Of a stretch of 32,000 nt of DNA, positions 5,426 to 31,321 are shown in pieces (position 1 is the stretch's first letter; the number at the start of each line of letters is the position of its first letter). Below the pieces are notes generated by a model, which ran no database searches, had not been told where the DNA came from, and worked only from the letters and a program-made list of their open reading frames with translations. This DNA is from Promethearchaeota archaeon. GTDB lineage: Archaea; Asgardarchaeota; Lokiarchaeia; Sigyniarchaeales; SOKP01. The stretch covers positions 330,001-362,000 of the forward strand of contig JAUWGH010000002.1 of NCBI GenBank assembly GCA_030606485.1. Direction: 5' to 3'. The position numbers were made by a program, and so were the translations under genes.

Positions 5426-5446
5426 TACTAATCCTATAAAATAATT

Positions 5447-6052
5447 TTAATCTTTGTAAAATGAATTTTTTTCGATTAAAATTTTTAATTCGGCGAGTAA
5501 CCAGCAAATTTCTTCATACGTTGAGGAGGATTTATAAATCTCCTTGGTTTTTTTCTTAATTTCTGCTTCTGAAGCTTTAACTTTACCTTTTAAAATAATT
5601 AATTGTGTTTCAGCTAGTTCTCTACATAATTCATCATAAGTTTTTTTCTCTTGAGAAATGTTATGTGCTGCAACAGTTATTTCGGCTTCGAGATCTGGGT
5701 CTAACCCCGCATCAATAAGTTCCATTGTATCTTCTATTTCAATATATAACTCGGGTCGTTTTTTAATGGGAAGATTCTGCTTTATACCTTTTTTTAAAAT
5801 ATCCATCATTGCAAGGAAAGCGCCAAATTCCTTATTTTGATTTATTATTTGTATTTTAACGGTGTTTTTTCTTTTATCATTTAATATATTTGCCTTTTTT
5901 ATACCAAAATTCTTTTTCTTTTTAGTAGCTTTTAGTCCAACCCATAAGTATATTGTTTTTAAATCATCAATTAAATAAACTTTATTTTCAGCAAAATCAA
6001 CTTTGATAATTTTTCTTAAAGCTCCATTTTCACTTACACTATACAGTTGCAT
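5447..6052 (-). CDS. Asgard gelsolin-domain protein: one gelsolin/villin repeat plus a helical C-terminal domain (1DGelX-like architecture)
   Basis: DF..NKVYLIDD.KTIYLWVG.KAT...K..GIKKA..LND.R.....IQIINQNKEFGAF matches the gelsolin-repeat pattern. The C-terminal half has an internal repeat, TYDELCRELAE / TYEEICWLLAE. Confidence 0.8.
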   Translation of the reverse strand: MQLYSVSENGALRKIIKVDFAENKVYLIDDLKTIYLWVGLKATKKKKNFGIKKANILNDKRKNTVKIQIINQNKEFGAFLAMMDILKKGIKQNLPIKKRPELYIEIEDTMELIDAGLDPDLEAEITVAAHNISQEKKTYDELCRELAETQLIILKGKVKASEAEIKKKTKEIYKSSSTYEEICWLLAELKILIEKNSFYKD

Positions 6053-6177
6053 TGTATTTCTCTATTTAGTTTGTGATAATAATATAGTAAAACTAAATAA
6101 TTTAATATTATTAATATTAACTTTTCGGTTTTTTTATTAAGAGGGCTATAAATCTTTAACTTTGATTTGGTTGACTT

Positions 6178-7416
6178 TTATTTTTTATATTTTAGAATAA
6201 TTTGTTCAAATTCAGGTTCTGTGGCAAATTTCTTTTTTGAAATAATATCTCGGAGTTCCTGTTTGATATTATTAAGGTATTTTTCATATTCATCAAATTT
6301 TAATTCTTCACATTTAAACCTAATTGCATCTCCATGCAATGTTGTAGGACCAAAAATTAATTGTTCCCTTTGTCCTACAACTTTATCTTTATACGGTGTG
6401 AAACACATCCAAAATTTATCTTTTTTGATAGCACTCATTACATGTAGTTCACTTTCATGTAAGAAAGTATTTTCACCAACCACTGGTTTATTTGGTGGTA
6501 TTTTTATACCAGATTTTTCTTCAACAAGTTTAGAAAGTTCATAAAGTTTTGAGAGGTCAATTCCCGTGTCGATTCCATATAAGATTTTTAAAGAAACAAC
6601 AACTTCTTCCAGTGATGCATTACCAGCTCGGTCACCTAACTGATTCACGACAAGATCCATAAATTCTGCCCCTTGTTCGACTGCTGCAATAGAAGATGCT
6701 GTTGCAAGACCGAAGTCATCATGGATATGAATTCCTAATGGAATATCTCCACAAATTGGTTTAATTTCCTTAATCATATGGGAAATTGCACGAGGATGAC
6801 ATGCTCCCACTGTATCATATAAAAGGACCTTTTTTACTCCATGTTTTATACCCCTTCTAATTGCCTCTTTTAGGAAAGTTAAATCTGATCTTGTTGCATC
6901 CACACAATCCAATATAGCAGTTCCACCATATTTTCTGATTTTTCTTAAAGTTAAAGGGATAATATTTAACATAACTTGGGGTGAAACTCTACTATCTCCT
7001 GTAAATAATTCTAATAACCATGGAGTTAAAACAATTCCATAACCGATATAATCAACCTTGGCATCTAATGCTTTTTGTATTTCTTCATCCCATTTTATTG
7101 GATTGGAGCTAAGATGGCTATATGTTTTAATTTTTAATCCCAATTCTTTAATTTTATTAGCTAAATCCCATTGTTCTTGAACTCTTCCAATGTATCCAAC
7201 ATCAATGTCGCCAACTCCGACTTCCTCTAATTTTTCGACAATATCAATTTTATCATCTAATGTATAATAAACACCTGGTGTTTCTTCTCCTTCACGAATG
7301 GTACTATCACGGACATAAACTTTTTTAGGAAAATTAAAATCTTTTAAAACATTTTCACTAAAATTGAATGGAGAAATCCACCACTTATCAGTGAACCATC
7401 TATTATATTCTGACAT
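6178..7416 (-). CDS. DRE-TIM metalloenzyme (homocitrate/isopropylmalate/citramalate synthase-like) without a regulatory domain, paralog A
   Basis: DSTIREGEETPG, DTVG, HIHDDFGLA.A, GDRAGNASLEE, PPNKPVVGEN.F.HES.LH. Confidence 0.9.
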   Translation of the reverse strand: MSEYNRWFTDKWWISPFNFSENVLKDFNFPKKVYVRDSTIREGEETPGVYYTLDDKIDIVEKLEEVGVGDIDVGYIGRVQEQWDLANKIKELGLKIKTYSHLSSNPIKWDEEIQKALDAKVDYIGYGIVLTPWLLELFTGDSRVSPQVMLNIIPLTLRKIRKYGGTAILDCVDATRSDLTFLKEAIRRGIKHGVKKVLLYDTVGACHPRAISHMIKEIKPICGDIPLGIHIHDDFGLATASSIAAVEQGAEFMDLVVNQLGDRAGNASLEEVVVSLKILYGIDTGIDLSKLYELSKLVEEKSGIKIPPNKPVVGENTFLHESELHVMSAIKKDKFWMCFTPYKDKVVGQREQLIFGPTTLHGDAIRFKCEELKFDEYEKYLNNIKQELRDIISKKKFATEPEFEQIILKYKK

Positions 7417-7452
7417 ATTAAATCACTAAAGAATTCATATATTTTTTAAAAT

Positions 7453-7479
7453 TAGTATTTAATATAATAATTAATACTA
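7453..7479. promoter_or_regulatory. Candidate operator: inverted repeat TAGTATT-N13-AATACTA between the two divergent DRE-TIM genes
   Basis: Perfect 7-bp arms at 7453-7459 and 7473-7479 in the 117-bp divergent intergenic region. The AT-rich background makes a chance match plausible. Confidence 0.25.
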
Positions 7480-7533
7480 TCTAATGCTATAAATGTTTAA
7501 TATAGTCAAAAAATAAAATCCAAATGATTAATT

Positions 7534-8751
7534 ATGTGGGTAAATCCTTGGGCATATATGAGAATGGATAAAAACCAACGTTGGTGGAGTTTTGAATGGA
7601 ATTTTATTGACCGTGTTAGAAACCAGATGAATTTGCCACAAAAGGTAATAATTAAAGATGATACATTAAGAGAAGGGGAAGAGACTCCTGGAACATATTT
7701 TACAATAGACCAAAAAGTAGAAATTGCTAAAATTCTTGAAGAAATGGGAATCCCAGAAATTGAAGTAGGATATGCTGCTGGGATTAAAGAACATGCTGAA
7801 ACTTTTAAAGTATTAAAAAAAGAAGGGATAAAGATGAAATTGTCCTCCCATGCACGCCTATATGCAAAAGATGTTATTAAAGAAGTTGATGATATTATCG
7901 CTGCAGAAGCGGATATAATAAACTTTTTACTTGTACCTGATCCCGTATTAAAGAGTAAAAATGATGTTTTTAACAGAATCACTGAAGGTATTGAATATGC
8001 AAAATCACAATCTGCTTATGTAGCATTTGGATCAGGGCGTGTAGCTCCACGTTATTGGGATAAGTTTTGCAATCTTGCATTGGATGCTGGTGTTGATAGA
8101 ATAGTAGTTTATGATGGAAATGGATGTGCCCTTCCTACAGCTTTTAGAGACCAAGTAGCATTTACTAAGAATATTGTTAAAGAAACTCCAATAGAAGTCC
8201 ATTGTCATAATGACTTGGGCTTAGCTGTTGCAAACACACTTGCGGGAGTAGAAGGTGGTGCAGAAGTGGTTGATGTCGTGTTTAACGGTCTTGGGGATAG
8301 AGCGGGAAATGCAGCTACTGAAGAAGTAATTATGGGACTTGAAATTTTATATGGAATAAACTTAAACCTAAAGCTTGAGAAAATTAAGGAAATATCACAA
8401 CTAATTGAAAAATACAGTAGAACCAAATTACAGCCACATAAAGCTATTGTGGGAAAAAATTGTTATATTCATGAATCAGATTTACACGTAGAACAAATCT
8501 TAACGGGTAATTGGGTTACTTGGGAATTAATTCAACCACATGTTATAGGACAAACTCGAAAATTGATATTTGGTGCTACCACACTTCAATCTCGAGCAAT
8601 AAAAGCAAAATTGAGTAAAATGGGATTAAACCCAACTGATAAAGAAATTCAAACTCTACAAACCGAAATCAAAACCTTAATTAAGACCAAGGAATTTATT
8701 TCTGAAGAAGAATTTGAGAAATTAGCAAAAAAAATTGTAAAAACGGATTAA
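7534..8751 (+). CDS. DRE-TIM metalloenzyme (homocitrate/isopropylmalate/citramalate synthase-like) without a regulatory domain, paralog B
   Basis: DDTLREGEETPG, EVGY, HCHNDLGLAVAN, GLGDRAGNAATEE, PHKAIVGKN.Y.HES.LH. Confidence 0.9.
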   Translation: MWVNPWAYMRMDKNQRWWSFEWNFIDRVRNQMNLPQKVIIKDDTLREGEETPGTYFTIDQKVEIAKILEEMGIPEIEVGYAAGIKEHAETFKVLKKEGIKMKLSSHARLYAKDVIKEVDDIIAAEADIINFLLVPDPVLKSKNDVFNRITEGIEYAKSQSAYVAFGSGRVAPRYWDKFCNLALDAGVDRIVVYDGNGCALPTAFRDQVAFTKNIVKETPIEVHCHNDLGLAVANTLAGVEGGAEVVDVVFNGLGDRAGNAATEEVIMGLEILYGINLNLKLEKIKEISQLIEKYSRTKLQPHKAIVGKNCYIHESDLHVEQILTGNWVTWELIQPHVIGQTRKLIFGATTLQSRAIKAKLSKMGLNPTDKEIQTLQTEIKTLIKTKEFISEEEFEKLAKKIVKTD

Positions 8752-8833
8752 AAAATTTTCCTATCGTTCATTCGCCAGACAACATTATTCCACTAAATAA
8801 TATTATTTGATAATAAACTGAGATGATCTCTCT

Positions 8834-9556
8834 ATGGATGATGAAAAACTCAATAAACTTAAATTGTTGGCGGTAATTTTTATTGTTATTTCAGGAATAA
8901 CCCATGTTATTGAGGGTTTCTTAGCAATTGGATTATTAGATCTTTCGGTAACGGTATTTGTGTATAGTTTCTTTCTTATTCCTATAGGTTTTAGGCTATT
9001 AATGCTATTAAAAAAAGAGGAATTAGATGAGAAAAAACAAACTATAATTTTCGCGTCAGTTGTTATTTTTCTTAATGGATGCGCATCCTTAATATTTTTA
9101 ATCACAACAGATGTAGGGCAAAAATTCTTTCTTTATGTTTTTATAGTATGGCATCTAATAGTAGATATTTATGTATTTTCAGTTCTATTTATCTCTAATA
9201 CTATTCTCGATAAAATGGATACTGATGAAAAAATTGGATATTTCTCAAATATTTTAATAAGAGGTTTAGGTTTAAATTATCTTTTTCAAATTCTAGCACA
9301 AATTCTTCCTGGATTATATTACATGATTGTTTATTTGTTAATTTTTGGAATAATAAATTTGATTATAGGTAATTTGTTGTATTTGAAAAAAGAGAATAAA
9401 CAAATTCAGATTTTAAGTATTATTCTTCTTACAATTGGAGGCATTATCGCAGTAATATTACTCATAATCAATACCACGCCAAATTTAATTTTGTTTGTTA
9501 TCTTTCATGTTATAATACTTGTTATTAGAATTTATTATATTAAGAGAAAATTTTAA
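8834..9556 (+). CDS. Hypothetical polytopic membrane protein (about 8 TM), probably two tandem 4-TM repeats
   Basis: About eight hydrophobic segments. The halves begin similarly (MDDEKL / MDTDEKI) and each has a His in its last helix (VWHLI / IFHVI). Confidence 0.7.
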   Translation: MDDEKLNKLKLLAVIFIVISGITHVIEGFLAIGLLDLSVTVFVYSFFLIPIGFRLLMLLKKEELDEKKQTIIFASVVIFLNGCASLIFLITTDVGQKFFLYVFIVWHLIVDIYVFSVLFISNTILDKMDTDEKIGYFSNILIRGLGLNYLFQILAQILPGLYYMIVYLLIFGIINLIIGNLLYLKKENKQIQILSIILLTIGGIIAVILLIINTTPNLILFVIFHVIILVIRIYYIKRKF

Positions 9557-9568
9557 AATAATAAGAGA

Positions 9569-10162
9569 TTAAGAAAAAATTCCACTTAATTTATTTAGTA
9601 GAGTAATAGCTCTTGTGGGATTAAAAATTCCGCACACACAAGGTTTTAATAATTTTTTTGCTGCATTTTCAACAGAAATTTTTCCACTTTTAATTAGTTC
9701 CACATAATATTTTACAGATTGGGGAGATATACAATGATGACCGCACATAGTAGTAATTTCCAATATTTCTTCAGAAGGTAAAAGTCCTTTTCTCCCAAAT
9801 GTACCTAATGAAAGATGTATGGTATGCATTTTCAAACCAGTCTCTTTAACTGCTTCTTGGATTTCGGAAATTAATCCACTAATTACTATCGAAACACCTA
9901 AATCTTCTTGCTTAAGAGTTTGTATAACATTCTTAACCATTTCAATATCAATAAAGGTTGCTGTAATTACTGGAGAAATCTTCCATGCAGGTTTCGGTAT
10001 AATATTTACAGGATTATTTTGATTTAATATTTCAGCTACTCGTAATAGTTTTTGTTTTGCATCCGGGTATTTATCGTTTATTCCAGCTGCAAGCATTGCT
10101 AAGATAATGTAATCACTCTTTAAATCGTTTATTTTTCCCGTTCTATGTAAAGAATGTGTCAC
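9569..10162 (-). CDS. Conserved hypothetical Cys/His-motif protein, partner of the upstream 4Fe-4S protein
   Basis: GTG start with GGAGGA 9 nt upstream. Motifs: MTHSLHR, TTMCGHHC and PCVCGIFNP.RA. It starts 21 nt after the ferredoxin-domain gene. Confidence 0.8.
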   Translation of the reverse strand: MTHSLHRTGKINDLKSDYIILAMLAAGINDKYPDAKQKLLRVAEILNQNNPVNIIPKPAWKISPVITATFIDIEMVKNVIQTLKQEDLGVSIVISGLISEIQEAVKETGLKMHTIHLSLGTFGRKGLLPSEEILEITTMCGHHCISPQSVKYYVELIKSGKISVENAAKKLLKPCVCGIFNPTRAITLLNKLSGIFS

Positions 10163-10171
10163 ATCCCTTGA

Positions 10172-10177
10172 TCCTCC
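10172..10177 (-). promoter_or_regulatory. Shine-Dalgarno site (GGAGGA) for the GTG-initiated gene at 10162
   Basis: Minus strand reads TAA-ATTTAC-GGAGGA-TCAAGGGAT-GTG. Confidence 0.65.
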
Positions 10178-10183
10178 GTAAAT

Positions 10184-10885
10184 TTATACCTTGCCTAAAC
10201 CTATATTAACTTTAGCATTTGGTCTTACTGAAAATTCCTGTTGAGTTAGTAAATCAAGTATTGGAATCGCCCCATCTTTCATTACTTGGGAAATAACACC
10301 TACTGTAAATACGGTATCAATATTTTTTTCTATTTGTTTTATCGCTTGTAAGACCAAAATCGCTTTATTTAAAGGCACTTTAAATTCAATAATTGCAGAA
10401 AGAACACGTTCTTCTTTTATATCTTTCTTAATATGCCCACTATCATCAATTAAAAGTGCTGAAACAGGACTTTCCCTTTCAAAATTTACACCAATAGATG
10501 TTAATTTCGTCGTAAATAATTCTATATTTCCAAGATGAGTTCCTACCCCAGGTCGTCCAATTTCAATAGAAAAACCGATTTCATCCACACCAAAACGATT
10601 GGTTACATCGTTAGTTTTCATCTCTTCTGTCCCTCTTCCGGGTATTCCTGTTAGTCTATGAGTAGAAATTACATCACTAAAGGGACTTCTAATCACTCGA
10701 GGCCATTTTAATCGTCTGGATCTAATTGCATTGACGGGACAATCAGCATTCCTTTTACAAATAGAACATTCTACACAGAGATTCTTATCAATAACTGCAA
10801 TATTATCAATTAATTTGATCGCCTGAACGGGACAAATAATGACGCACTGTCCGCACCCTATACAAAGATCAGCTTTTATTTCCAT
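10184..10885 (-). CDS. 2x[4Fe-4S] ferredoxin-domain protein with a conserved C-terminal domain of unknown function
   Basis: [12 protein letters not shown] and [14 protein letters not shown], followed by the motifs [13 protein letters not shown] and EIGRPGVGT. Confidence 0.85.
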
Positions 10886-10896
10886 TGCATTAATTC

Positions 10897-12195
10897 CTAT
10901 TCTTGCTTTACTTCATTCTTTTTCTTCTGTCTAGATTTAATTTTATCTATGTCTCGAGGCAAAAATTTAAAAATTGGAATTAAAAGTAAATTACTTAATA
11001 AAGCCATAATAGCTAATATAACGTAAGCAGGTCTATATTGATTATTAAAAAATACAAATAGCTGTCCAACCATCAATAAACTTATACTTCGACCAATGGT
11101 GATTGTTAATAAATAATTTAGCGAATAAATAGTTGATCTAATTTGAGGTGGATTAATTTCTCCGAGTGTTGCTTGAGTAAGTGGATCTATACCCCCAAAA
11201 AAGAAAGCACCTGAAATTGTAAGAAGAAGGAATATAATAACCATTAAAATTTCAGTAGATGTAAAAACCAATGAAAATGCTACAATATAAAAAAGTGATC
11301 CAGTTATGAGACAAACCAGAACCATTTTCATTCTTCCTTTTTTGTTTTTTTCATAGCTTTTATCACCAATATATCCGAAAAGGGGTCCACTCGGAATTTG
11401 ACTTCCAAAAATTATAATTAAAAAGATGGTTGCAATTGTGGAGCTAAACTGGTAATCATTTTTCAACATCGCAATCAAAAGGGAGGAAATAGCACCTATT
11501 GCTATAAACATTGCAAAATTAAAACATAATATTAAGAAAATCGATTTAATTTTCCAGATTTGCTTTAAATCTTTAATTCTAATTTTATAACTTAATCCGA
11601 GAAAGCTTTCATCTAAAGTTTCATATAATTTGTCCTTTGCTCCTCTTAATGGTTCTTTAACTGTAAATAATAATATTGAACAAACAAATCCACCAATTGA
11701 AACCACAATAAAAGGTACAATCCATGGACATACCTCAATTAAAAATCCTGAAAGAAATTGACCTAAACCATTACCTAAAACATAAACTGCACTTAATAAG
11801 CCAAATTTTTTCCCTCGTTCTTTCATATCACTTAAATCAACTAATAAAGAGTATGTTAGAGGTATAGCAGCCCCAAAACCTACTGCAGTAATTAGTTGAT
11901 ATATTAATAAAGAATAAAAATCTGTAGCTAAAGTGGTAATAAGGGTAAAAATTGACCATTCTAAAGTAGCAATAATTAATAATATTTTGCGTGAAAATTT
12001 ATCGCCTAGAATTGCCCAAACTAGCGAAGAAACCGCACCAACTATCAAAAACATAGAATTTATATAAATTATTTGTTCTTCACCTGCTAATCCTAAAGCC
12101 AGTGTAATCTCATTAGCCATAGGAGTTAAAATACTAAAAAGAGTTGATGAAAAAAGTATCAATAATACTAAAATAAAAAAAGAATTTTGCTTCAT
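10897..12195 (-). CDS. MFS transporter
   Basis: 12-TM pattern, motif A (LGDKFSRK) and its second-half equivalent (GYIGDK). Confidence 0.93.
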
Positions 12196-14890: not shown

Positions 14891-15418
14891 TTAGTTGATA
14901 TGAAATTTTTTTAGTAAATATTCATTTCTATCGAGTTCTTCACTGAATTCTTCAAGTTTTTTGATTTCCCAAGCAATTTTATTTATTTTTTCTTGATTGC
15001 TTAATTCTTGATATATATCTAATGCTCGTCGATAATAGTCAATAGCAAATTCATATTTGCCTAATATTGCAAAGTCACTGGCAATATATTCTATACTCTC
15101 CGCTTCACCCAGTTCATCTCCAAGTTCTTTATGAATTTTCATTGCCTGTTGATAAGATTGCAATCCTTTTGCAAAATCTTTCCTAATTGCATGGATTTGT
15201 CCTAAATTTTTTAATACCTCAGCTTCAAGATTTTTATCTGCTTCCTTTCTTGAATAATTCAACATCTCTGTTAATAAAGTTAGTAATTTATTGCTATCTC
15301 TCTTAGAGTGGACAAATTCCATTGCCATATTGAAGTATTCAAGAGATTTTGTAATATCCTTTTTGTGAAAAAATTCTAAGCTCTTTTCGTATAGATTTGG
15401 TAGATTTGCTGTGGTCAT
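14891..15418 (-). CDS. Tetratricopeptide repeat protein
   Basis: TPR-like helices: EAEVLKNLGQIH...KDFAKGLQSYQQAMKI and EAESIEYIAS.F...GKYEFAIDYYRRALDI. Confidence 0.85.
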   Translation of the reverse strand: MTTANLPNLYEKSLEFFHKKDITKSLEYFNMAMEFVHSKRDSNKLLTLLTEMLNYSRKEADKNLEAEVLKNLGQIHAIRKDFAKGLQSYQQAMKIHKELGDELGEAESIEYIASDFAILGKYEFAIDYYRRALDIYQELSNQEKINKIAWEIKKLEEFSEELDRNEYLLKKFHIN

Positions 15419-17385: not shown

Positions 17386-19071
17386 CTATTTAATTTTTCT
17401 GTTTCGGTTCTTTCTTACATACATAATAGAGAGAATAACTACTCCAATCAAGGACCCAATGAACAATGTGGTGATTTGAAAACCAGGAATTTGTAGTCCA
17501 TTTTGAATATTAATCGCTAATGAGGTTTGTTTAACATTATTTGCACTGTCTGTAGCAATGGCTGTAAGATTATGTAATCCATTAATATAACTCGTTGTGT
17601 CTAAACTATAATTTGCTACAGGATATGGAAGATAAGGAGGCATAGATTCTTCTTTTAGCAATCCTCCATCAATCAACAGTTGGATTTTCTCAAGTTGTTG
17701 ATCATCATCTCCTTCCGCTGTAATATTTACAATACCTGTTAAATTCGCATAGGGGCTTGGATTTGTAATTATAACCGTAGGATCAACATTATCTACTGGA
17801 GCAATTCCATCTTCATTAATACCTACTCGAGTGGAAATAATTTGACCACGTCTTCCGTCCACATCTTCAACAAAAAAGGTAAGTATATAGTCAGAATCAA
17901 GTATTGGGGAATTGATCGCTACTCTTCCAGTAAAATTTCCATTCCCATCAGGTGTTAATTCCCATTGATATGAATTTTCATTCTCATCCCAAAGTCCCAT
18001 TGATTCATTATCTCTAGGTTCTGGGGGTGTCCAATCTTCAGATATTACTCTACAAATCACACTAGCAATGTCTGTTGAATTATCAACTCCTATGGAAATT
18101 GGAATATTTATTATTGCGGGATTATATGCCACCCAAAATTTTAATGGAACAAACAGGACTTGTGGAGCCTGAATCAAAATAGGAGGACATCCTTGACATA
18201 AAAAGGTATTTTTTGCATCATTTCCATCTCCTGTACTTGGAAGCTGTCCCCAAGCATTTACTATATGTCCCATACCATCGTGATTATCATCAATACACGG
18301 TTTTTGCACATCTCCGTAGCCTAAAGCGTTAATCTCATTAGTAGCATCCACGAAAGCATCTCCAATGGAATTTCCTGCAAGAATAGATTTAAAAAGACCT
18401 TCTCCAAACATTGAAATATGAGGTGGGATCGGACTCCACCATGCACTATAACCAGGTTCAGTTGATGTCATAACTATTCTATCCGATTTACTTAATTCAT
18501 CTAAGAAAGATCCAGAAGAACATGCTTCATAAACAACAATAATCCGATCACATCCAGAAGCTGCTTCAAAATCATCCAAATATTGATCAAGTTGACTAGC
18601 AGTTAATGAAGAAAAAGGATAATTTGCCATTGCATTGGTTCCACCATGATCATGTATGTACACCATTAAAATTCCATTTGGACCAACTTTATCAGGTGCC
18701 CATGTAGTAAATGCATAATTCATATTACCAGAAGAACTAACCCCATATTCCCGTGAAGTGTATGTGAGAGCAACCATTGGAACTAACATTAATATTTCAT
18801 TATCAGTATTGCCACATGCTAATGCTTGATCATAGACCCATTCGAGTGTCAATAATACTAAATCCCATCCGTGATGATTTGATTTATCTCCCCCGATAAT
18901 GATCCAAGCATCTACACACTCGTATTGAGCAGCACTAGATTTAACCGAAATGTCGGAATTAGTGTTAAATTGATTATAACTCATATTCCCACCAGAATTT
19001 ACCCACCAATACTGAAAATTAGAGAGAATAATATAAGTAAGTAGAATTAGTCCCAGCTTTTTTTTATCCAT
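17386..19071 (-). CDS. Secreted, membrane-anchored peptidase family C13 (legumain/GPI8-like) with an Ig-like domain and a PGF/Loki-CTERM-like sorting tail
   Basis: N-terminal signal-like segment; His-Cys dyad contexts VYIHDHGG and VVYEACSSGSF; DDNHDG; Big-like repeat P.V.ITNP......TG.V.ITA...DD; C-terminal IPGF + TM + basic RKNRNRKIK. Confidence 0.82.
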   Translation of the reverse strand: MDKKKLGLILLTYIILSNFQYWWVNSGGNMSYNQFNTNSDISVKSSAAQYECVDAWIIIGGDKSNHHGWDLVLLTLEWVYDQALACGNTDNEILMLVPMVALTYTSREYGVSSSGNMNYAFTTWAPDKVGPNGILMVYIHDHGGTNAMANYPFSSLTASQLDQYLDDFEAASGCDRIIVVYEACSSGSFLDELSKSDRIVMTSTEPGYSAWWSPIPPHISMFGEGLFKSILAGNSIGDAFVDATNEINALGYGDVQKPCIDDNHDGMGHIVNAWGQLPSTGDGNDAKNTFLCQGCPPILIQAPQVLFVPLKFWVAYNPAIINIPISIGVDNSTDIASVICRVISEDWTPPEPRDNESMGLWDENENSYQWELTPDGNGNFTGRVAINSPILDSDYILTFFVEDVDGRRGQIISTRVGINEDGIAPVDNVDPTVIITNPSPYANLTGIVNITAEGDDDQQLEKIQLLIDGGLLKEESMPPYLPYPVANYSLDTTSYINGLHNLTAIATDSANNVKQTSLAINIQNGLQIPGFQITTLFIGSLIGVVILSIMYVRKNRNRKIK

Positions 19072-20817: not shown

Positions 20818-23514
20818 TTATCCATAAAGATTTATCTTTTTAACAATAAATCTTATGAATCTACGAGCAAGATGATACATTAAGAGACCCAATAGCCCAA
20901 AGTGATGTTTCAACGCCCCAAGGGTAGAATATATATAGCTTATTGCGCCAAAATAATCTTGTGTTAATGAATACTCGCCTTTTAAAAGATCTGGTTTTAT
21001 TATATCTCCGTTTAGATTCGGAGGACGACCAAATGATTTTACCTTACTCCAGCGCTTATCACTAAAATCGATTTGAGACCATGAATCATTACTAAATTCC
21101 TCTTTTTTATAGCAAACCCATGATTTATCAGAGTAAAATTCTTGTATAGAATTATTATCCAATAAAATTTGACCAAAAATATTAAAAGCTCCTCCAAAAC
21201 CTTGATAATTTATACCCTTTATAGCTATTACATTGTTCCCTTTTTTTAGTAAATAAGTAATATCAAATGTTTTAACTCGTTTTGCGATTGGGACAATATG
21301 GAGCGAAAATCTACTTAAAACTTTCCCGATAATAGTTCCATTTACATATATTTCAATATAATTGCCTGCGATTCCTTGAATAATTGCTTTCTTTATATTT
21401 TGATCAATTTTTATAACCTTTCTAAAATACCTAGGCTTTGGTGGGTTTTCAAATTCTTTTACCCAAATCCACATAGATTCTAAATATGGATCAACAAATT
21501 GTATATTCTGATTGAGTTCTTCTATTTTTTTATTATATGCATTAATGACAAAATCAAAAAGAATGAGAATTTGGTCGAGACAAGGACGTTTTGCAGATCT
21601 AAGCCATAATTCTTCGTATCTATTTTTCAAATAAGTGAATTTATTTTTTATTTCTTCCAATTGTGGGATTATCTTCTCTCTTAACTCATTATTTAAGTCG
21701 TTTGATTTTATTAAATTAGTTATTGATATAGATATTTTAATTTTTTCACTCAAAATCTGAGCCAATTCAGCTCCAAGCTTAATGTACTCAAAATTTTCCT
21801 TGTTAAATTTAACAAAATTCTCAAGTTCTTCATAAATTCTTAGGGATTGAATTGCCATATCTTCCATTAATTCATATTTATCAAAAGGTGGTTTAATTTT
21901 CTCAGAGGTAAATGGATGTTTGAAAAGATACGTAAAAAACAATGGTGGTAATAATATCGAAACCTTTTTATACAATTTTGGCATTGAACTTAGAGTATTA
22001 AACAATTTGAAATAATTTTCAAGATGTTTTTCCTCTAATCCATAAAATAGAAAGCCGTAGGTTTTTACGTTATCTTTATAAATATCAAATTTAGAATTCC
22101 ATGAAACAGCGGCACCTAAGACTCCACCAAAAAGTGTATTATCTCTAAAAGAGTAATAATGTTGATCCCCCCAAATACTATTCAACATACCAATAACGCC
22201 GCGATCTTTGCTATTGACTCCTTGTTTCGTTAAATTGATTATATTTTTACTTGCATGTATATTATCCGGAAAATTTCTGCACCAATTCAACATTGAAGGA
22301 CTTACGATTACTTTAAAACCTGCATCTAATAATTTATCCAAATCTTTATAATAATCCCTTGGAGTATATTCCCAATACATTAATATTATATTTTTATTGA
22401 GATTTTCTAAGATATTTTCATCAGTAATGGGAATATCATGATACATCACAATTTTATCTTTCCCAGCCCCAGTTACCATCTCATAAATTTTATTATAAAA
22501 ATCTATAAGTACCTTCCTCTTTCCCTCCCTTTCTACTAAATCCCTTGACCTTACCGTTCCTAAATCAAAACTCTCATCACATCCGATGTGGAACCATTTG
22601 CTGGAGAATGCCTTACTTAATATTTCTATATAGCTTTTTAAGAAGGGAAATATTTCCGGATTTGAAACATTAACACAGCCACTTCCCGGAAATTCAGCTA
22701 AATTCCAATAATTTTCTATCATAAAAATATTATCTTGATGACCAATACAATTGTAAATAGGAAAGAAGTTTACAAATCTCTCCTTTGCATATTTATCAAT
22801 CTCTTTGATTTCTTCGACTGATAATGCACCCCTATTTTTACCAATATTTGGATAATCAGGATTAATAATCATATCTTGAAGATAACATGGACAAAATGTA
22901 TTCAATTTATAATGGCAATATATTTTTATGAACCGTTTGGCACTTTCAACGGTAAATACTTGCCCTCGAGCAATATCTTCTGTCACGCCTCTCATATCTA
23001 AATCGGGATAATCAATTATTTCAATTTCTGGAAGAATAATGTGTTTTCGATCCTCTTTTTTTTCTGTTAGTTGAATCATATTTTTTAAAAAACCGTTTTT
23101 AAATATTTGAATTAAAGTCTGGACACCATAGAATAACCCCTGATCAGTTTTAGAATAAGTTGCTACCATATTATTCGAAATAATCAACCCATAACTCTCA
23201 TCACCTTTAAGATTTTTCTCATTGATACGATTTTTAAATTGAACACCATTAAATTTTTCAAAAGTGCCAGAATATTCATAATTCAGAGCGCAAAATTGAT
23301 CAAGCGCATCATTTATATCATCTAATATTAATTTAAATTTCTCTGTATTAAAAAAATAAAATTCCGAATCTTCTTTTAATGAATATCCACAATTGTTTTT
23401 ACTATGGATGAGATGCTGAGGTGGTGGAATCAAAATAGGTCTCTCTGAAGATAAATTCTCTAATTTTTCAAGATTTGTAATAATTAAACCCTTTAAATTT
23501 TTCAAGCAATTCAC
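20818..23514 (-). CDS. GH20-like beta-N-acetylhexosaminidase with an N-terminal zincin-like domain and a C-terminal beta-sandwich domain
   Basis: E.Y.L.I.......YSKT.QGLFYGVQTL.Q, I.DYPD...RG...D..RG, IGHQ, FHIGCDES (catalytic DE pair), MYWEY, SIWGD. The C-terminal domain resembles rhamnosidase N-terminal jelly-rolls (P..RYFRK...I, SDKSW). Confidence 0.88.
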   Translation of the reverse strand: MNCLKNLKGLIITNLEKLENLSSERPILIPPPQHLIHSKNNCGYSLKEDSEFYFFNTEKFKLILDDINDALDQFCALNYEYSGTFEKFNGVQFKNRINEKNLKGDESYGLIISNNMVATYSKTDQGLFYGVQTLIQIFKNGFLKNMIQLTEKKEDRKHIILPEIEIIDYPDLDMRGVTEDIARGQVFTVESAKRFIKIYCHYKLNTFCPCYLQDMIINPDYPNIGKNRGALSVEEIKEIDKYAKERFVNFFPIYNCIGHQDNIFMIENYWNLAEFPGSGCVNVSNPEIFPFLKSYIEILSKAFSSKWFHIGCDESFDLGTVRSRDLVEREGKRKVLIDFYNKIYEMVTGAGKDKIVMYHDIPITDENILENLNKNIILMYWEYTPRDYYKDLDKLLDAGFKVIVSPSMLNWCRNFPDNIHASKNIINLTKQGVNSKDRGVIGMLNSIWGDQHYYSFRDNTLFGGVLGAAVSWNSKFDIYKDNVKTYGFLFYGLEEKHLENYFKLFNTLSSMPKLYKKVSILLPPLFFTYLFKHPFTSEKIKPPFDKYELMEDMAIQSLRIYEELENFVKFNKENFEYIKLGAELAQILSEKIKISISITNLIKSNDLNNELREKIIPQLEEIKNKFTYLKNRYEELWLRSAKRPCLDQILILFDFVINAYNKKIEELNQNIQFVDPYLESMWIWVKEFENPPKPRYFRKVIKIDQNIKKAIIQGIAGNYIEIYVNGTIIGKVLSRFSLHIVPIAKRVKTFDITYLLKKGNNVIAIKGINYQGFGGAFNIFGQILLDNNSIQEFYSDKSWVCYKKEEFSNDSWSQIDFSDKRWSKVKSFGRPPNLNGDIIKPDLLKGEYSLTQDYFGAISYIYSTLGALKHHFGLLGLLMYHLARRFIRFIVKKINLYG

Positions 23515-25015: not shown

Positions 25016-25165
25016 TTAGCATCATCCTCCACCATTAGGAGGAGGTTGGAATAAAACCGGAGCGAATATTACTAATATAATTACAATTATTATTATTGCC
25101 GCTATAATTGTACCTAAGATAATAAAATTTTTTTGTTTCCGTTTATCTGCAATATTTTGATCCAT
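25016..25165 (-). CDS. Candidate small single-pass membrane selenoprotein (49 aa, C-terminal GGG-U-C); not in the ORF track
   Basis: Manual translation: MDQNIADKRKQKNFIILGTIIAAIIIIVIILVIFAPVLFQPPPNGGG(TGA 25024-25022)C(TAA 25018-25016). There is an alternative in-frame ATG at 25171. A SECIS-like hairpin lies directly downstream. Confidence 0.75.
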
Positions 25166-25204
25166 AACCATACACTTTATTTTTTAGACTTAATTAATCT
25201 AATT

Positions 25205-25298: not shown

Positions 25299-27137
25299 AT
25301 GATTAGTAAACTTGAATATATAAATGATTTTTCAATAAAGATTGAAGATATAAGTAAAATCTGCTATGATAAATCTACTAAAATATTTTCTGCCGACCTT
25401 TTTGATTTTAAATTTATAGGTCTTTATAGAAAATCGACAAAAATTAGAAAAATCTTGGATGAGCTCTATACTTTATTGATAGACTTACCAGTAAAACGCA
25501 ATGATCTTTTTCTTTTAAATTTAAAAAACTGGAAACCAATCTCTGAAAAAAGTAAAATAAAGAAACTGAATTTGACAAAAAATGATGAGTTTGTATTTGG
25601 AATAAGGTTTAATATTAATATAATCGATGAAAATACTGACCAGCATAAATTATTTAGAGATATTTTCCCTCACAAGATACCTTTTAATATGATTCTACAG
25701 AAATTCACAACAGATGTAGGCATAGATAATAGATCTTTTGAACTTTATGTAAAAGAGAAATCTATGTCTCAGTGGATTTTATTCGAGGATAATGGTGAGA
25801 AACTATTTGAAGATATAATAAGTGAATACGGAAATGTTTTTGAATTACGAATTAAGAAATTCGAATATAAAGAAGAAAAATATCTTGTAATATATTTTGA
25901 AAATAAGTTATCGCCAGAGCCCGAGCTTGTGCCGTTCCCAGTTTTACCTACTTCAACTATAACTGATCTTTTACCCGAATTATCAGAAAAATTTAATATT
26001 CAGCCACAAGATGTATCTATAACAGAAAAATATGGAACTATACTTTCACCAGAAGATTACATGCTGCCAATTAAAGAGTTGAAGGAAAAATATGGAGATA
26101 CGTTTGATATAGTTGAAATCCATTTTGCAGGTGGCGGTCCTCCTCCTCCAAAAGAAAAAGATATGTTTATCGAAGAAATTCATGAGGAAGAGAAGAAAAA
26201 ACTAAGGAAAAAAGCAATGCCTTCAATATTATCACGCCCAGCAGGCCCACCTAAAACTAAAGAAGTTAGTAAACAAGAAGTTCCTAAATTGGCTTCAGTG
26301 AAAGCACCTCCTCTTCCAGAAAGAGCATTATTTAAACGAGATGAAATTCAAATGGAAACTGAAGCTGAGGAAATTGAAGATGTGTTAGCGTATGCACCTT
26401 TAGAAGATCAAGGTATAGAAACTCCCCAATTAATCAGATATGATATCAATATGGGACTCCAATACTACTCAGTGATGATGGAACAGTGTAGTTATTTATT
26501 TTATATATATTTTTCTCATGAAGAATTAATAATAGAAGATGAGGATGGTAAAACAATAGTTAAAACGAAATTTACAATAGAAACAACTAAAAAAGAGCCC
26601 CCAGTATTAGACGTTAGAGTAGAAGGAGAAGGTTTCGAAGTTCATCCTCTTATTGCTAAACTACTTGTTAAAAAAGAAGCCGTGAACCCACCTCTTATGA
26701 TTTTTTCAGTTCTCCCTATAAAAGCAGACAAAAAAGAAAACAAGAAAAAAGATAAAGAACATACTGATACTCGATTTTTGCATGTGCTCATTGATTTTGA
26801 GGATAAAATTATAAACCACACAGTTTTAGCGATAATTGTCCAACCCAAACATTTTCACTTAGATCTTGGACCCATACATATCGATATTGGTAAAACAACT
26901 GCCACTTTTATTTCCTTAATTTCATTAGCCTGGGCAGTGATCTCAGTAATATATTCCCTCATATCTATTGATTTATCATCCACTCTATTTAATGTAGTAG
27001 GGGGATTCACTCCCAGCCTAATATCCATTCTATTTGTCGTCATTTTCTTTTACACATTAATTAAAGGAGTTTATCCACTCAAAAGAATGTGGAGTAATAC
27101 TCTTAATTTCGATAAGACTTCACCAATTTCAAAATAA
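25299..27137 (+). CDS. Membrane-anchored protein with 2-3 tandem ubiquitin-like (beta-grasp) domains, internal Gly-Gly, Pro/charge-rich linker, beta-rich domain and 2 C-terminal TM helices
   Basis: Residues ~195-280 fit a Ubl pattern (V.P.STITDLL..L...F.I.P.D..I....G.IL...D....I.EL...YGDTF.IV...AGGG). Residues ~103-187 repeat it (YGNVFEL). Residues ~30-102 may be a third copy. GGG is at 26130-26138 and is followed by PPPP. Confidence 0.65.
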   Translation: MISKLEYINDFSIKIEDISKICYDKSTKIFSADLFDFKFIGLYRKSTKIRKILDELYTLLIDLPVKRNDLFLLNLKNWKPISEKSKIKKLNLTKNDEFVFGIRFNINIIDENTDQHKLFRDIFPHKIPFNMILQKFTTDVGIDNRSFELYVKEKSMSQWILFEDNGEKLFEDIISEYGNVFELRIKKFEYKEEKYLVIYFENKLSPEPELVPFPVLPTSTITDLLPELSEKFNIQPQDVSITEKYGTILSPEDYMLPIKELKEKYGDTFDIVEIHFAGGGPPPPKEKDMFIEEIHEEEKKKLRKKAMPSILSRPAGPPKTKEVSKQEVPKLASVKAPPLPERALFKRDEIQMETEAEEIEDVLAYAPLEDQGIETPQLIRYDINMGLQYYSVMMEQCSYLFYIYFSHEELIIEDEDGKTIVKTKFTIETTKKEPPVLDVRVEGEGFEVHPLIAKLLVKKEAVNPPLMIFSVLPIKADKKENKKKDKEHTDTRFLHVLIDFEDKIINHTVLAIIVQPKHFHLDLGPIHIDIGKTTATFISLISLAWAVISVIYSLISIDLSSTLFNVVGGFTPSLISILFVVIFFYTLIKGVYPLKRMWSNTLNFDKTSPISK

Positions 27138-28678: not shown

Positions 28679-31321
28679 TTAGATAAGCTCAATATAAATC
28701 TTTTGCCCTTCAGTAAGGGTGATAGAATCAGATAGAACAATTTCAGCAATTTTATACTGATCTAAAAATGAGAAGATCACATTTAAAGGGCTTTTTTTGC
28801 CATCTTGAGATATAATAACACATATATTGCATTCTGTCGGTTGGAAATTACTTAAAGTCTTAAAGTAGATGGATTTTAAATCAATTTTTCCATATGCAAT
28901 AGATATGAAAGCACTGAATTTTCCTTCTGTAATTTTTTGACCTACCTGACCCCATGAAATTCTGGTTATAAAAAAAGTTTCTAAGTTGTTTATATTCATA
29001 CGTGGTTCAAGTGTTAACCGTTTGAGTTCAATTGAATAATTAACTCCTGTTAAGGCGTGAAGTAAAGTCCATGAAGACATAGCTCTGACATAATGATCCC
29101 CACACTCAACTTCGTTCCATGGATTTCGATGTGAACCATCATATCTGTTTCGAATAGATTGAATTATTTTTAAACCATCAGAGATCTTTCCAATAAATAT
29201 ACAAAGTGCGGCGATTTCATATTCGATACCTGTCCATACTTCATCACTGTAATATGTTGGAACATCTGGTTTATTTCCATGTGGCCAAGTGCAGTTCATT
29301 AATGCTGAATCACTTGGAGATGCAAAAATACGCGAAGTTTGTGTGATCCCTTTAAGGGTTTCTTTGAAATTATATTTGATTATGGATTCAATGGCTTTAT
29401 TAACATGTTCAGGTGGAAGTATATATCCGAAACCGAGTTGAAATGCCCACCATTGACCAACGAGTTGATCAGAAAAACAACCAATACCATATTGGAATTT
29501 TTTAATTTCAGTTTCATCAAATTTTTGTATATAGTATTCTCCGTTCCAGCATTCTTTATCGAGAGTTGATTGCCCTGAATTGAAAGTTTTTATTAATTTT
29601 TCCGACCATTCAGATAAGTTTAACTTATTAGCAATCTTTTCACACGCCAAAAGAGAGGTTAAATAGAGAGTGCCAATAAATGTGTTAATCCCGGTAAGAG
29701 AGCAATCATAAGTATTAGGTTGATCGGAATAGATAACTCCATTTAAGTTCTTATCATAGGTGTTAAAGATAAATTTAATTAATTTTTCAATATAGTGCCA
29801 TGATTCTTGAAGAAATTTAAGGTCGTTGGTAATTAAGAAATCCCGATAAATTTTCAGAATCATTCCGAACATTCCATCTATTGCAGGGGGGACATCGCCT
29901 GGATCTGGGATCATTCCAAACTGTGGTAAATATAGAGGAATTACAGAACGATGAGGTAGATATCCATCTTTATTTTGCATTTTGAATTCAGTCTCTCGCA
30001 TCGTCCTTTCAAGCATGGGAAATAAGTGAGCTAAGCTAAACGCATAATTCCAAACATGAGTGCAATCTAAAGGACATGAACCTCCAGATAATTTACCTGT
30101 AGATGCACCATTACATCCTTCGAATCCATGAAACGTTCCATCTCTCATCCAAAAACACGTGGGAGTCCTGATTGTAGAAAACGTAGATGATATGCTAGTT
30201 AATACTTCAGATGGGAGATTACTTGAGAAAAATGCTTCATGAAATTGTTCAGTCTTTTCTAAAAGATATGTCCAATGCTCTCGTGCATATGCGATCACTT
30301 TTAATGAATTACTGAACCATTTATTATAGTAATTTCCAATCCAAAATTCCGTTTGAGTATCAGGTATCATTGCTTTATTTATATTCCAATCAACTACACG
30401 ATTAGGAAAATTCCACGCTAAAATAAATGTTATTACGGCACTCTCTTCGGGATTTAAAATTTTTTTAGTTGCAAGGCTTCCTGCCCATGTTTGGCCAATC
30501 GCACTCATATCTTCAGAGTCAGATTGTGATAATACACCCTCGCGTGAAAAATGAGACCAAAAATCATTCAAATCCCGCCATTGGGTTGTGATTGTTGCTT
30601 CAGACTGATCAATTGCCAATGTTAAATCTCCAAATCTTCTATCTTTTTTTAATATTGTTTTTGATCTCATGTAAATGGCGTGCCAATCACCAATTCGTCT
30701 ATGAACATTAATATTACCACCAAATAAGGGATTAAATTCTCCTTTAATTCGTTTTTCTCCATCCCACCCTAAGAAATTGAGGAGACTACCCATTATAGTT
30801 ATTTCATAGGGGAACTCAGAGTTGTTTTTGAGATAAAATTGAAAAATAATTAAGGGTAAACCCGAATTTTTTGAATCCAAGGGAATGAATGGATTAAAAG
30901 CTACTAATCTAATATTAATCGGGAGTGAATTTTCTTTGAAATTTAAGAAAGAAATGGGATATTCCCCATCAAACTGAATCTCTTCAACACCTGGAAGTAT
31001 TTTGAACATATCTTCCATTGCTGCGGTTATTTTATGATCATTCGTGGTTTTTGGTGGTTTAAAACTAAGATCTTCATGAATATTAGGACAAATTAGAGCA
31101 TGACAATTTATTTTTTCAGAATTATTTCCTACTCTGCGTGTTCCGACCGCAAAAAAACTATTTGGCACAAATGCTGTATGTTTAATAGAATTTGTGATTT
31201 GCCATTGTTTGAGAAAGCCATCACCATCTATAGCAATTGAACCAGTGCCAATACCACCTAATGGCATCGCTGCGCATCGTAGTTTCTTTCCCGTTAATGG
31301 AAGAATTCCTTTTGGTTTCAT
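28679..31321 (-). CDS. GH116 family beta-glycosidase (non-lysosomal glucosylceramidase GBA2-like)
   Basis: MPLGGIGTGSI, GFEGC (nucleophile region), NTYD (acid/base region), DQLVGQW, EVWTGIEY, NPWNEVECGDHYVRAMSSW. Confidence 0.92.
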   Translation of the reverse strand: MKPKGILPLTGKKLRCAAMPLGGIGTGSIAIDGDGFLKQWQITNSIKHTAFVPNSFFAVGTRRVGNNSEKINCHALICPNIHEDLSFKPPKTTNDHKITAAMEDMFKILPGVEEIQFDGEYPISFLNFKENSLPINIRLVAFNPFIPLDSKNSGLPLIIFQFYLKNNSEFPYEITIMGSLLNFLGWDGEKRIKGEFNPLFGGNINVHRRIGDWHAIYMRSKTILKKDRRFGDLTLAIDQSEATITTQWRDLNDFWSHFSREGVLSQSDSEDMSAIGQTWAGSLATKKILNPEESAVITFILAWNFPNRVVDWNINKAMIPDTQTEFWIGNYYNKWFSNSLKVIAYAREHWTYLLEKTEQFHEAFFSSNLPSEVLTSISSTFSTIRTPTCFWMRDGTFHGFEGCNGASTGKLSGGSCPLDCTHVWNYAFSLAHLFPMLERTMRETEFKMQNKDGYLPHRSVIPLYLPQFGMIPDPGDVPPAIDGMFGMILKIYRDFLITNDLKFLQESWHYIEKLIKFIFNTYDKNLNGVIYSDQPNTYDCSLTGINTFIGTLYLTSLLACEKIANKLNLSEWSEKLIKTFNSGQSTLDKECWNGEYYIQKFDETEIKKFQYGIGCFSDQLVGQWWAFQLGFGYILPPEHVNKAIESIIKYNFKETLKGITQTSRIFASPSDSALMNCTWPHGNKPDVPTYYSDEVWTGIEYEIAALCIFIGKISDGLKIIQSIRNRYDGSHRNPWNEVECGDHYVRAMSSWTLLHALTGVNYSIELKRLTLEPRMNINNLETFFITRISWGQVGQKITEGKFSAFISIAYGKIDLKSIYFKTLSNFQPTECNICVIISQDGKKSPLNVIFSFLDQYKIAEIVLSDSITLTEGQKIYIELI

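Follow-up and report, generated by a model that had tools for sequence, protein, structure and literature searches.

A predicted membrane protein of an Asgard archaeon with embedded UFM1-like domains and an internal Gly-Gly

A tandem ubiquitin-like protein with a C-terminal membrane module

The stretch of DNA analysed here, hereafter the window, comprises 32,000 nucleotides of the Promethearchaeota archaeon genome (assembly GCA_030606485.1, contig JAUWGH010000002.1, positions 330,001 to 362,000) and contains an open reading frame (ORF) at 25299..27137 (+), which was translated into a protein of 612 residues, P0001, with full-length orthologues of 611-612 residues. The protein carries a probable ubiquitin-like (Ubl) N-terminal domain (N-domain) and two further domains, units 2 and 3, assigned as UFM1-like from a structural model and from homology; unit 3 runs into a Gly-Gly, and a linker, a β-sandwich and two transmembrane (TM) helices follow. 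All features of the protein given below lie on the + strand. This frame, with the peptide AGGG (residues 277-280) just before a PPPP/charged linker, a β-rich domain and two C-terminal TM helices, had been described in an initial annotation made from the letters alone, and was found exactly as described there. No Pfam family matches the whole protein at E ≤ 10, and a sequence search of the PDB matched no solved chain; its only return, eL13 at E > 1 in the low-complexity linker, is noise.

The three glycines (residues 278-280, 26130..26138) are encoded by the codons ggt ggc ggt, and the PPPP stands directly after them. The low-complexity linker (residues 281-375, 26139..26423), recognised by its composition and low conservation, is rich in P, E and K (17 E, 13 K and 11 P among the 93 residues 283-375), with a predicted local distance difference test (pLDDT) score below 50 where modelled; its length varies within the family, and other members carry different domains inserted there. 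Next come a conserved β-sandwich domain (residues 376-531, 26424..26891) and two TM helices placed as a hairpin (residues ~533-557 and ~566-590, 26895..27068) by hydropathy windows and by the helices H168-191 and H207-237 in a model of the C-terminal module. The short, uncharged or acidic hairpin loop and the K/R-rich flanks predict that both protein ends are cytoplasmic, and the chain closes with a conserved, predicted cytoplasmic tail (27069..27134) of the form YPLK...LNFDK...K, in which P593, L594, K595, N603, F604, D605 and K612 are invariant in the family alignment A1. The C-terminal Lys on this highly conserved tail is near-universal in the family.

Contigs from metagenomes of other studies span units 2 and 3, the Gly-Gly, the linker and the C-terminal domain without insertions or deletions (X6, 25458-26872; X7, 26004-27055), and such bridging by independent contigs argues that the architecture is not an assembly artefact. 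The only read variant at the GGG codons is a synonymous GGC>GGT. A single contig from an RNA library covers 25760-26241, which can show neither transcription nor processing.

Predicted ubiquitin-like folds of the N-domain and unit 2

Residues 1-292 were modelled with AlphaFold2, the unit 3 part being built on an alignment of five sequences, and the model reached a pLDDT of 80-92 in the N-domain (residues ~18-95, 25350..25583), ~80 in unit 2 (residues 98-188, 25590..25862) and ~60 in unit 3. The best Foldseek matches in the PDB were linear tetra-ubiquitin, the tandem Ubls of USP7, ISG15 and di-ubiquitin (E 1.7e-10 to 1e-6), and the shape matches in the ESM Atlas were all of polyubiquitin type, some of them covering residues 25-218, i.e. 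the N-domain together with unit 2. Likewise, the N-domain aligned jointly with unit 2 onto tandem-ubiquitin models, and its language-model neighbours were ubiquitin-clan families (0.81-0.86), which we take as a lead only. The N-domain is probably a β-grasp fold, conserved in the alignments of the family. Hence a third, N-terminal unit, offered as a possibility by the initial annotation, is probable as a Ubl-like fold from the pLDDT and the tandem alignments, but not as a sequence repeat, as no profile similarity to unit 2 or unit 3 was found.

When the Foldseek matches were re-aligned with VIA-align, the top nine rows for unit 2 were all UFM1 chains (Z 9.7-10.8, root-mean-square deviation (rmsd) 1.7-3.1 Å over 74-84 of 74-90 residues); UBX, SUMO and ubiquitin ranked below them at Z ~8. 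Judged from the model, unit 2 is UFM1-like at the level of the fold. At the level of sequence, the Pfam model Ufm1 (PF03671) did not match at E ≤ 1 either residues 95-290 or nine members of the unit-3 family, and the profile of that family found no UFM1 chain in the PDB, only a redesigned ubiquitin (E 0.0046).

Units 2 and 3 end alike, in YGNVFEL and YGDTFDIV, and had been called clear repeats of ~85 residues. This was overstated in terms of raw similarity, with 13-19% identity between the two units and a BLAST match of 19% identity at E 0.14; by profile comparison, however, the match holds, since the profile of unit 2 orthologues and that of the unit-3 family were aligned by hhalign over 61 columns with a probability of 85.7% (E 5.5e-6). 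The repeat, as read from these profiles, is real but old. By contrast, the label poly-ubiquitin-like did not survive: the domains are UFM1-like rather than ubiquitin-like in the narrow sense, the three are very divergent and not near-identical repeats, and a Gly end is found on unit 3 alone, with no terminal Gly on unit 2 or the N-domain.

Unit 3 derives from a family of Gly-terminated modifiers

Unit 3 (residues 193-277, 25875..26129) was traced by phmmer, profile search and a tree. Its sequence (residues ~192-280) matches small free proteins of 80-96 residues (~88 residues) with phmmer E values of 5.7e-14 to ~1e-4, more free members being gained by profile search. It also matches the C-terminus of a TIR-domain protein, and the N-termini of three proteins of ~270-290 residues, the remainders of which match Pfam UFC1 (29.4, 24.7 and 24.7 bits; cut-off 25). 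Twelve of 18 free members end exactly in (I/V)VG, and two of the 18 carry three further residues. The C-terminal Gly of these free modifiers aligns with G278 of P0001 (FDIVEIHFAG in the query versus FDIIDRGIVG), and the modifier tail DRG(I/V)VG is changed to EIHFAG in the embedded unit. A Gly is present and aligned at G278, yet it is internal, with 332 residues following. The ESM Atlas feature neighbours of one free Ubl, P0196, are of the ubiquitin clan only.

In a maximum-likelihood tree of the Ubls, which was midpoint-rooted and based on a short alignment, the embedded copies group together (support 100/100), and the stem of their clade is long, at 0.92 substitutions per site; the clade is nested in a subgroup with Ubls of the E2-fusion type, that of a congener included. 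On this phylogeny, unit 3 appears to have been captured once from an Asgard UFM1-like modifier family, and the long stem fits changed constraints after capture. We call unit 3 UFM1-like by homology, namely through its profile match to unit 2, its own model being weak (pLDDT ~60). A check on the β-grasp assignments proposed with the initial annotation accordingly came out in their favour for both units, unit 2 superposing best on UFM1 (Z up to 10.8) and unit 3 being homologous to Gly-terminated Ubls.

None of the seven embedded orthologues departs from Gly at G278 or G279, whereas the positions after these differ (G, S, V or I, then P or A). At 68-91% identity the orthologues are closely related, which makes conservation of the Gly-Gly a weak test either way. 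An invariant Gly-Gly followed by variable residues indicates that it is part of the conserved domain, in its tail, and not of the fast-evolving linker, which had been the doubt attached to it from the start. In addition, the unit-3 family was seen at the C-terminus of the TIR protein (P0162) and within open frames of 897 and 937 residues (G021:C100:35851-36087; G039:C230:1050-1283), so that this Ubl appears to have been shuffled into several architectures.

The C-terminal module has a generic β-sandwich

Residues 365-612 were modelled alone from a 67-sequence alignment (mean pLDDT 73.5), giving a β-sandwich (residues ~379-530, pLDDT mostly 80-92) followed by two long helices. By Foldseek this C-module matched PapD/FimC chaperones, MG and ASH domains (E ~5e-5), and by VIA-align it matched ankyrin-B, UNC5b, CARD8 and NLRP1 (FIIND) at Z 8.7-9.9, in chain ranges that we take to be the UPA sub-domain of ZU5-UPA; MG, HAP2 and PapD-like domains were within one Z unit of these. 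The modelled sandwich therefore appears generically Ig-like, without a clear winner, and no family was assigned. PmoB/AmoB was rejected as a relative, since ~260 columns were aligned but at an rmsd of 17-18 Å, reflecting only the arrangement of a sandwich plus two helices. Autoproteolysis of the ZU5 type at an invariant FSH (residues 405-407) was also discarded: this motif is located within strand three of the sandwich rather than at a boundary between domains, the structural matches lack specificity, and no bacterial parallel was found in the literature looked up. In the ESM Atlas, the shape of the C-module recurs in its own family and at the C-termini of bacterial proteins with TIR, CHAT, kinase, EAD11 and TCAD9 heads (TM score 0.43-0.57), which fits a reusable membrane-anchoring module, as far as the model goes.

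Units 2 and 3 were inserted into the linker of a membrane protein family

At least 394 relatives, mostly of 420-490 residues, were found by a word-indexed search, and 78 among 50%-identity representatives by an exhaustive search. They share a plan of N-domain (residues ~1-95), variable charged/Pro-rich linker and strongly conserved C-module (residues ~376-612), i.e. the usual form is N-domain, linker, sandwich and hairpin, without a counterpart of residues ~96-283; units 2 and 3 are therefore insertions in the linker. A WD40 propeller forms the N-terminal part of some distant members. The membrane family is single-copy. By GTDB family, 19 of 24 genomes of the host's own family (f1) and the one genome of a sister family (f3) have the C-module, which was found in none of 11 and 4 genomes of two further families belonging to the same order (f2 and f4). 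In a phylum-wide sample it was found in 17 of 121 genomes, with all strong matches in f1. Names used by NCBI (Thor-, Hod-, Hermod- and Odinarchaeota) hinted at a spread across the Asgard archaea, which this GTDB-based sampling did not support.

Unit 2 is present in P0002-P0009, including the more distant relatives P0006-P0009, while unit 3 was seen in none but P0002-P0005 and three genomes from the host's genus, a range limited to that genus and its nearest metagenomic relatives. The wider occurrence of unit 2 argues that it was inserted before unit 3. Regional identities, measured against P0004 and P0005, were 65% and 69% for the N-domain, 64% and 67% for unit 2, 75% and 74% for unit 3, and only 39% and 35% for the linker, with the β-sandwich at 87% and 88% (59-68% across the family). 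Units 2 and 3 being better conserved than the adjacent linker is, at sequence level, a sign of a kept function.

A putative conjugation island in a congener is missing from the host

In the congener G001, the Ubl family is encoded in a ~10-kb accessory island of co-directional genes (L028, G001:C36:30000-47000, ORFs 5323-11912), which comprises in order a 365-residue protein of unknown function, a ThiF E1 (170 bits), a JAMM protease (L028:7283-8509; Prok-JAB, 27.5 bits), a Ubl::UFC1-like fusion of 272 residues in which ...DRNIVG leads into the E2 part, an EAP30-like winged-helix protein (26.1 bits versus a cut-off of 26.8) and an SPFH protein. The UFC1-like part keeps an invariant Cys-His-x-His. 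This island may represent a compact UFMylation-like cassette; no Asgard UFC1 or Ubl::UFC1-like operon of its type was found in the literature searched.

The host genome, 100% complete by marker genes and in 13 contigs, yielded no Ubl-family profile match besides unit 3 itself (E 2.5e-37), no UFC1-like E2 by either the Pfam model or an Asgard E2-domain profile, which does find the E2 of G001 (E 1e-75), and no match to the JAMM of G001; its best ThiF is only 30% identical to the E1 of G001. By tblastn, the genes flanking the island are 90-95% identical in the host and lie ~410 bp apart there (C1:429042 and 429454), versus ~10.4 kb in G001. With its flanks adjacent, the island is truly absent from the host and not lost in an assembly gap. 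Among three other genomes of the genus with the embedded form, one has the E2, and none was found in the other two (94% and 90% complete). The host does encode six JAMM-domain (Prok-JAB) matches and three ThiF-type E1-like genes. A search for Peptidase C78 (UfSP) gave no match, but was uninformative as the control also matched nowhere.

A host protein of 788 residues combines N-terminal zinc ribbons with a UFL1-like winged-helix region (E3_UFM1_ligase, 55.9 bits; L032:424-2790; G000:C1:~447.9-450.3 kb). Its gene stands ~86 kb past the end of the window, in a genome with no free UFM1-like or UFC1-like gene.

Genomic context

Within the window, the gene follows one for phosphoglycerate kinase and precedes one for an alpha/beta hydrolase, neighbours that suggest no functional link. 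In other genera the family gene follows one for a two-TM protein of ~330-340 residues, in a conserved stretch of genes for an Hrq1-like helicase, LysR, DsrE and TusA. This two-TM protein, which has no Pfam match, is encoded directly upstream (L025:4960-5970, L024:4828-5847, L026:3281-4264; only nearby in one of the three) and is a possible partner; its host homologue, P0208 (L027:1486-2508), is on another contig. A divergent ORF for a single-TM peptide of 49 residues lies at 25022-25171 (-), shared at 98% and 83% with two genomes of the genus and not detected next to the family gene in other genera; the designation as a Sec membrane peptide was dropped, as no Sec family matched. Further away, the window encodes on the minus strand a 175-residue TPR protein (14891-15418) with a borderline match to CDK5RAP3, the UFMylation adaptor C53 (22.9 bits versus a cut-off of 22.6), which is probably a helical-repeat artefact. 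The flanking region also holds genes for a legumain-like Peptidase_C13 with an Ig domain (17386-19071, -), a GH20 hexosaminidase-like protein (20818-23514, -) and a GH116 glucosidase-like protein (28679-31321, -).

DISCUSSION

On balance, we consider it probable that the Ubl domains of P0001 serve as non-conjugated docking modules on a membrane-anchored scaffold. In such a scaffold, the Ubl-like N-domain would be cytoplasmic and held on a long, disordered tether rich in P, E and K, with the β-sandwich and a two-helix hairpin following. Two UFM1-like domains would have been inserted into this tether in the host lineage, unit 2 first and unit 3 later, the latter retaining the terminal Gly of the modifier (G278) plus a second Gly. 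Since the host has no cognate E1, JAMM or E2, these domains would be neither released nor conjugated, but would act as permanent, built-in marks on a flexible tether at the membrane, recruiting putative Ubl-binding partners. An anchoring role is supported by other family members, which tether other interaction modules to the C-module, e.g. WD40 propellers. Between the two options left by the initial annotation, a precursor releasing a Ubl array or a membrane adaptor with a HERP-like topology, the evidence leans to the adaptor, given the absent cognate island and the lack of a terminal Gly on unit 2 and the N-domain; of the HERP-type features, the Ubl-like nature of the N-domain comes only from tandem alignments and language-model leads, the hairpin is drawn from hydropathy and modelling, and the topology is a prediction.

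Several observations weigh against a docking scaffold. The Gly-Gly is invariant beside varying sequence, and a purely structural domain would not obviously need it; the source family is routinely made as precursors, i.e. E2 fusions or forms with extensions of 3-4 residues past the Gly, so that processing at G278 has a precedent; any of the six Prok-JAB proteins of the host could cleave; and the model of unit 3 is of low confidence.

In a different account, rather unlikely in our estimate, the protein is a membrane-tethered pro-modifier: a protease, JAMM or other, would cut after G278 or G279 and free a tri-Ubl of 278-279 residues with a Gly or Gly-Gly end, to signal as a free fragment or to be conjugated, with the sandwich and hairpin staying in the membrane, comparable to the precursors of ISG15 and FAT10. 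The position of G278 exactly at the terminal Gly of the free modifiers is what such a precursor would show, most of these ending in VG and two bearing three-residue extensions, as is a Gly-Gly kept in seven of seven orthologues beside a fast-evolving linker; moreover, unit 3 is most closely related to Ubl::E2 fusions, which are encoded beside a JAMM that presumably cuts the same Gly, and JAMM-domain and E1-like genes are available in the host. Nevertheless, the UFC1-like E2, the cognate JAMM and the cognate E1 are missing there, no E2 was found in two more genomes of the genus, the tail before the Gly has diverged from DRG(I/V)VG, and release would split the conserved N-domain from its anchor, at a site without an equivalent in other family members.

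A further account, which we regard as distinctly improbable, is that of a hard-wired mimic of a modified substrate. Here the Lys-rich tether would be a target of the modifier in relatives bearing the island, and an in-frame fusion would have replaced the modification, making the mark constitutive and the enzymes dispensable. That the insertions sit in the K/E/P-rich tether, that the island is dispensable in the genus and includes an SPFH membrane protein hinting at membrane-linked action, and that a UFL1-like protein is encoded in the host despite the missing free UFM1-like gene would all suit a mimic. Within f1, the membrane family accompanies the Ubl family in every sampled genome that has the latter, but this co-occurrence is unspecific, since the majority of f1 genomes encode the membrane family and no Ubl, and two genomes from elsewhere show the reverse; any modification of the family is itself hypothetical, and unit 2, the older insertion without a Gly tail, means that at least one insertion was never conjugatable in its present form. 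Finally, units 2 and 3 could be functionless passengers of the domain shuffling that is frequent in Asgard linkers, with the Gly-Gly as an uneroded relic. The linker is indeed an insertion hot spot for differing domains across members and the distribution of unit 3 is narrow, but this account is very improbable in view of the 64-75% identity of units 2 and 3 versus 35-39% in the linker, the persistence of unit 2 in more distant relatives, and the lack of frameshifts or stops in four genomes or in the independent contigs.

As a docking scaffold, the protein would resemble known non-conjugated Ubl proteins. In HERP, a Ubl at the N-terminus is joined through a long flexible stretch to a hairpin-like membrane anchor, and both termini are cytoplasmic, much like the topology predicted here. 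HERP/Usa1, TMUB1 and the membrane-anchored MUBs likewise present a non-conjugated cytoplasmic Ubl on a membrane anchor, a location that is predicted for P0001; unlike the HERP/Usa1 type, however, P0001 has three Ubl-type domains, two of them UFM1-like, and a β-sandwich before the hairpin, with no sequence homology. Compared with UFM1, the similarities are the β-grasp fold, with unit 2 superposing best on UFM1, the genetic tie of the unit-3 family to a UFC1-like E2, and the single exposed Gly at the end of that family after R-x-(I/V)-V-G. UFM1 itself ends in ...RDRVG, resembling this tail. The differences are that neither Pfam Ufm1 nor any UFM1 chain of the PDB was matched by sequence, that the domain is internal to a 612-residue membrane protein, and that the host is without the E2.

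Precursors processed at a Gly-Gly, namely polyubiquitin, ubiquitin-ribosomal fusions, ISG15 and the Caldiarchaeum ubiquitin precursor cut by JAMM/Rpn11 (PMC6043591), share with P0001 the tandem Ubls, a Gly-Gly after the last β-grasp and a C-terminal extension, and the relatives of unit 3 are encoded as fusions beside a JAMM protease; but here the domains are divergent, the Gly is on the last only, the extension is a 332-residue membrane module and the cognate enzymes are absent. UFBP1/DDRGK1, the anchor of UFMylation in the endoplasmic reticulum membrane and itself UFMylated, is also a membrane protein that bears UFM1 on its cytoplasmic part, and a UFL1-like protein is encoded in the host; in that case, however, a lysine receives UFM1 after translation, while the UFM1-like domain of P0001 is part of the encoded polypeptide, and the anchors are not homologous.

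According to Picchianti et al., UFM1 and UFC1 are found only in eukaryotes, and UFL1 and DDRGK1 are traced to Asgard archaea (PMC10183829). Asgard Ufm1 homologues have been reported by structural modelling, some of the hits not being full-length proteins and some having several hit regions (Köstlbacher et al., PMC12962969); these may be the same set as the unit-3 family. On this background a bolder picture can be drawn, which we think improbable as a whole: the embedded domain would be either a hard-wired UFM1 marking at the membrane or an on-demand pro-modifier, its mark would be read by the UFL1-like protein of the host as a prokaryotic forerunner of the UFBP1/UFL1 platform, and the island of the congener would be a compact ancestral UFMylation cassette.

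If the docking scaffold is the right reading, P0001 would be a natural example of how a modifier became an integral domain while retaining its Gly-Gly, in genomes without the conjugation enzymes, under a purifying selection that is read from conservation. The relatives of the locus also lead to a compact operon in which the modifier and a UFC1-like E2 are encoded as one fusion, for a pathway of which UFM1 and UFC1 were long held to be eukaryote-specific (PMC10183829). Constructs taken from it could serve to identify the binding partners of UFM1-like domains in Asgard archaea and to ask whether such domains are processed by JAMM proteases.

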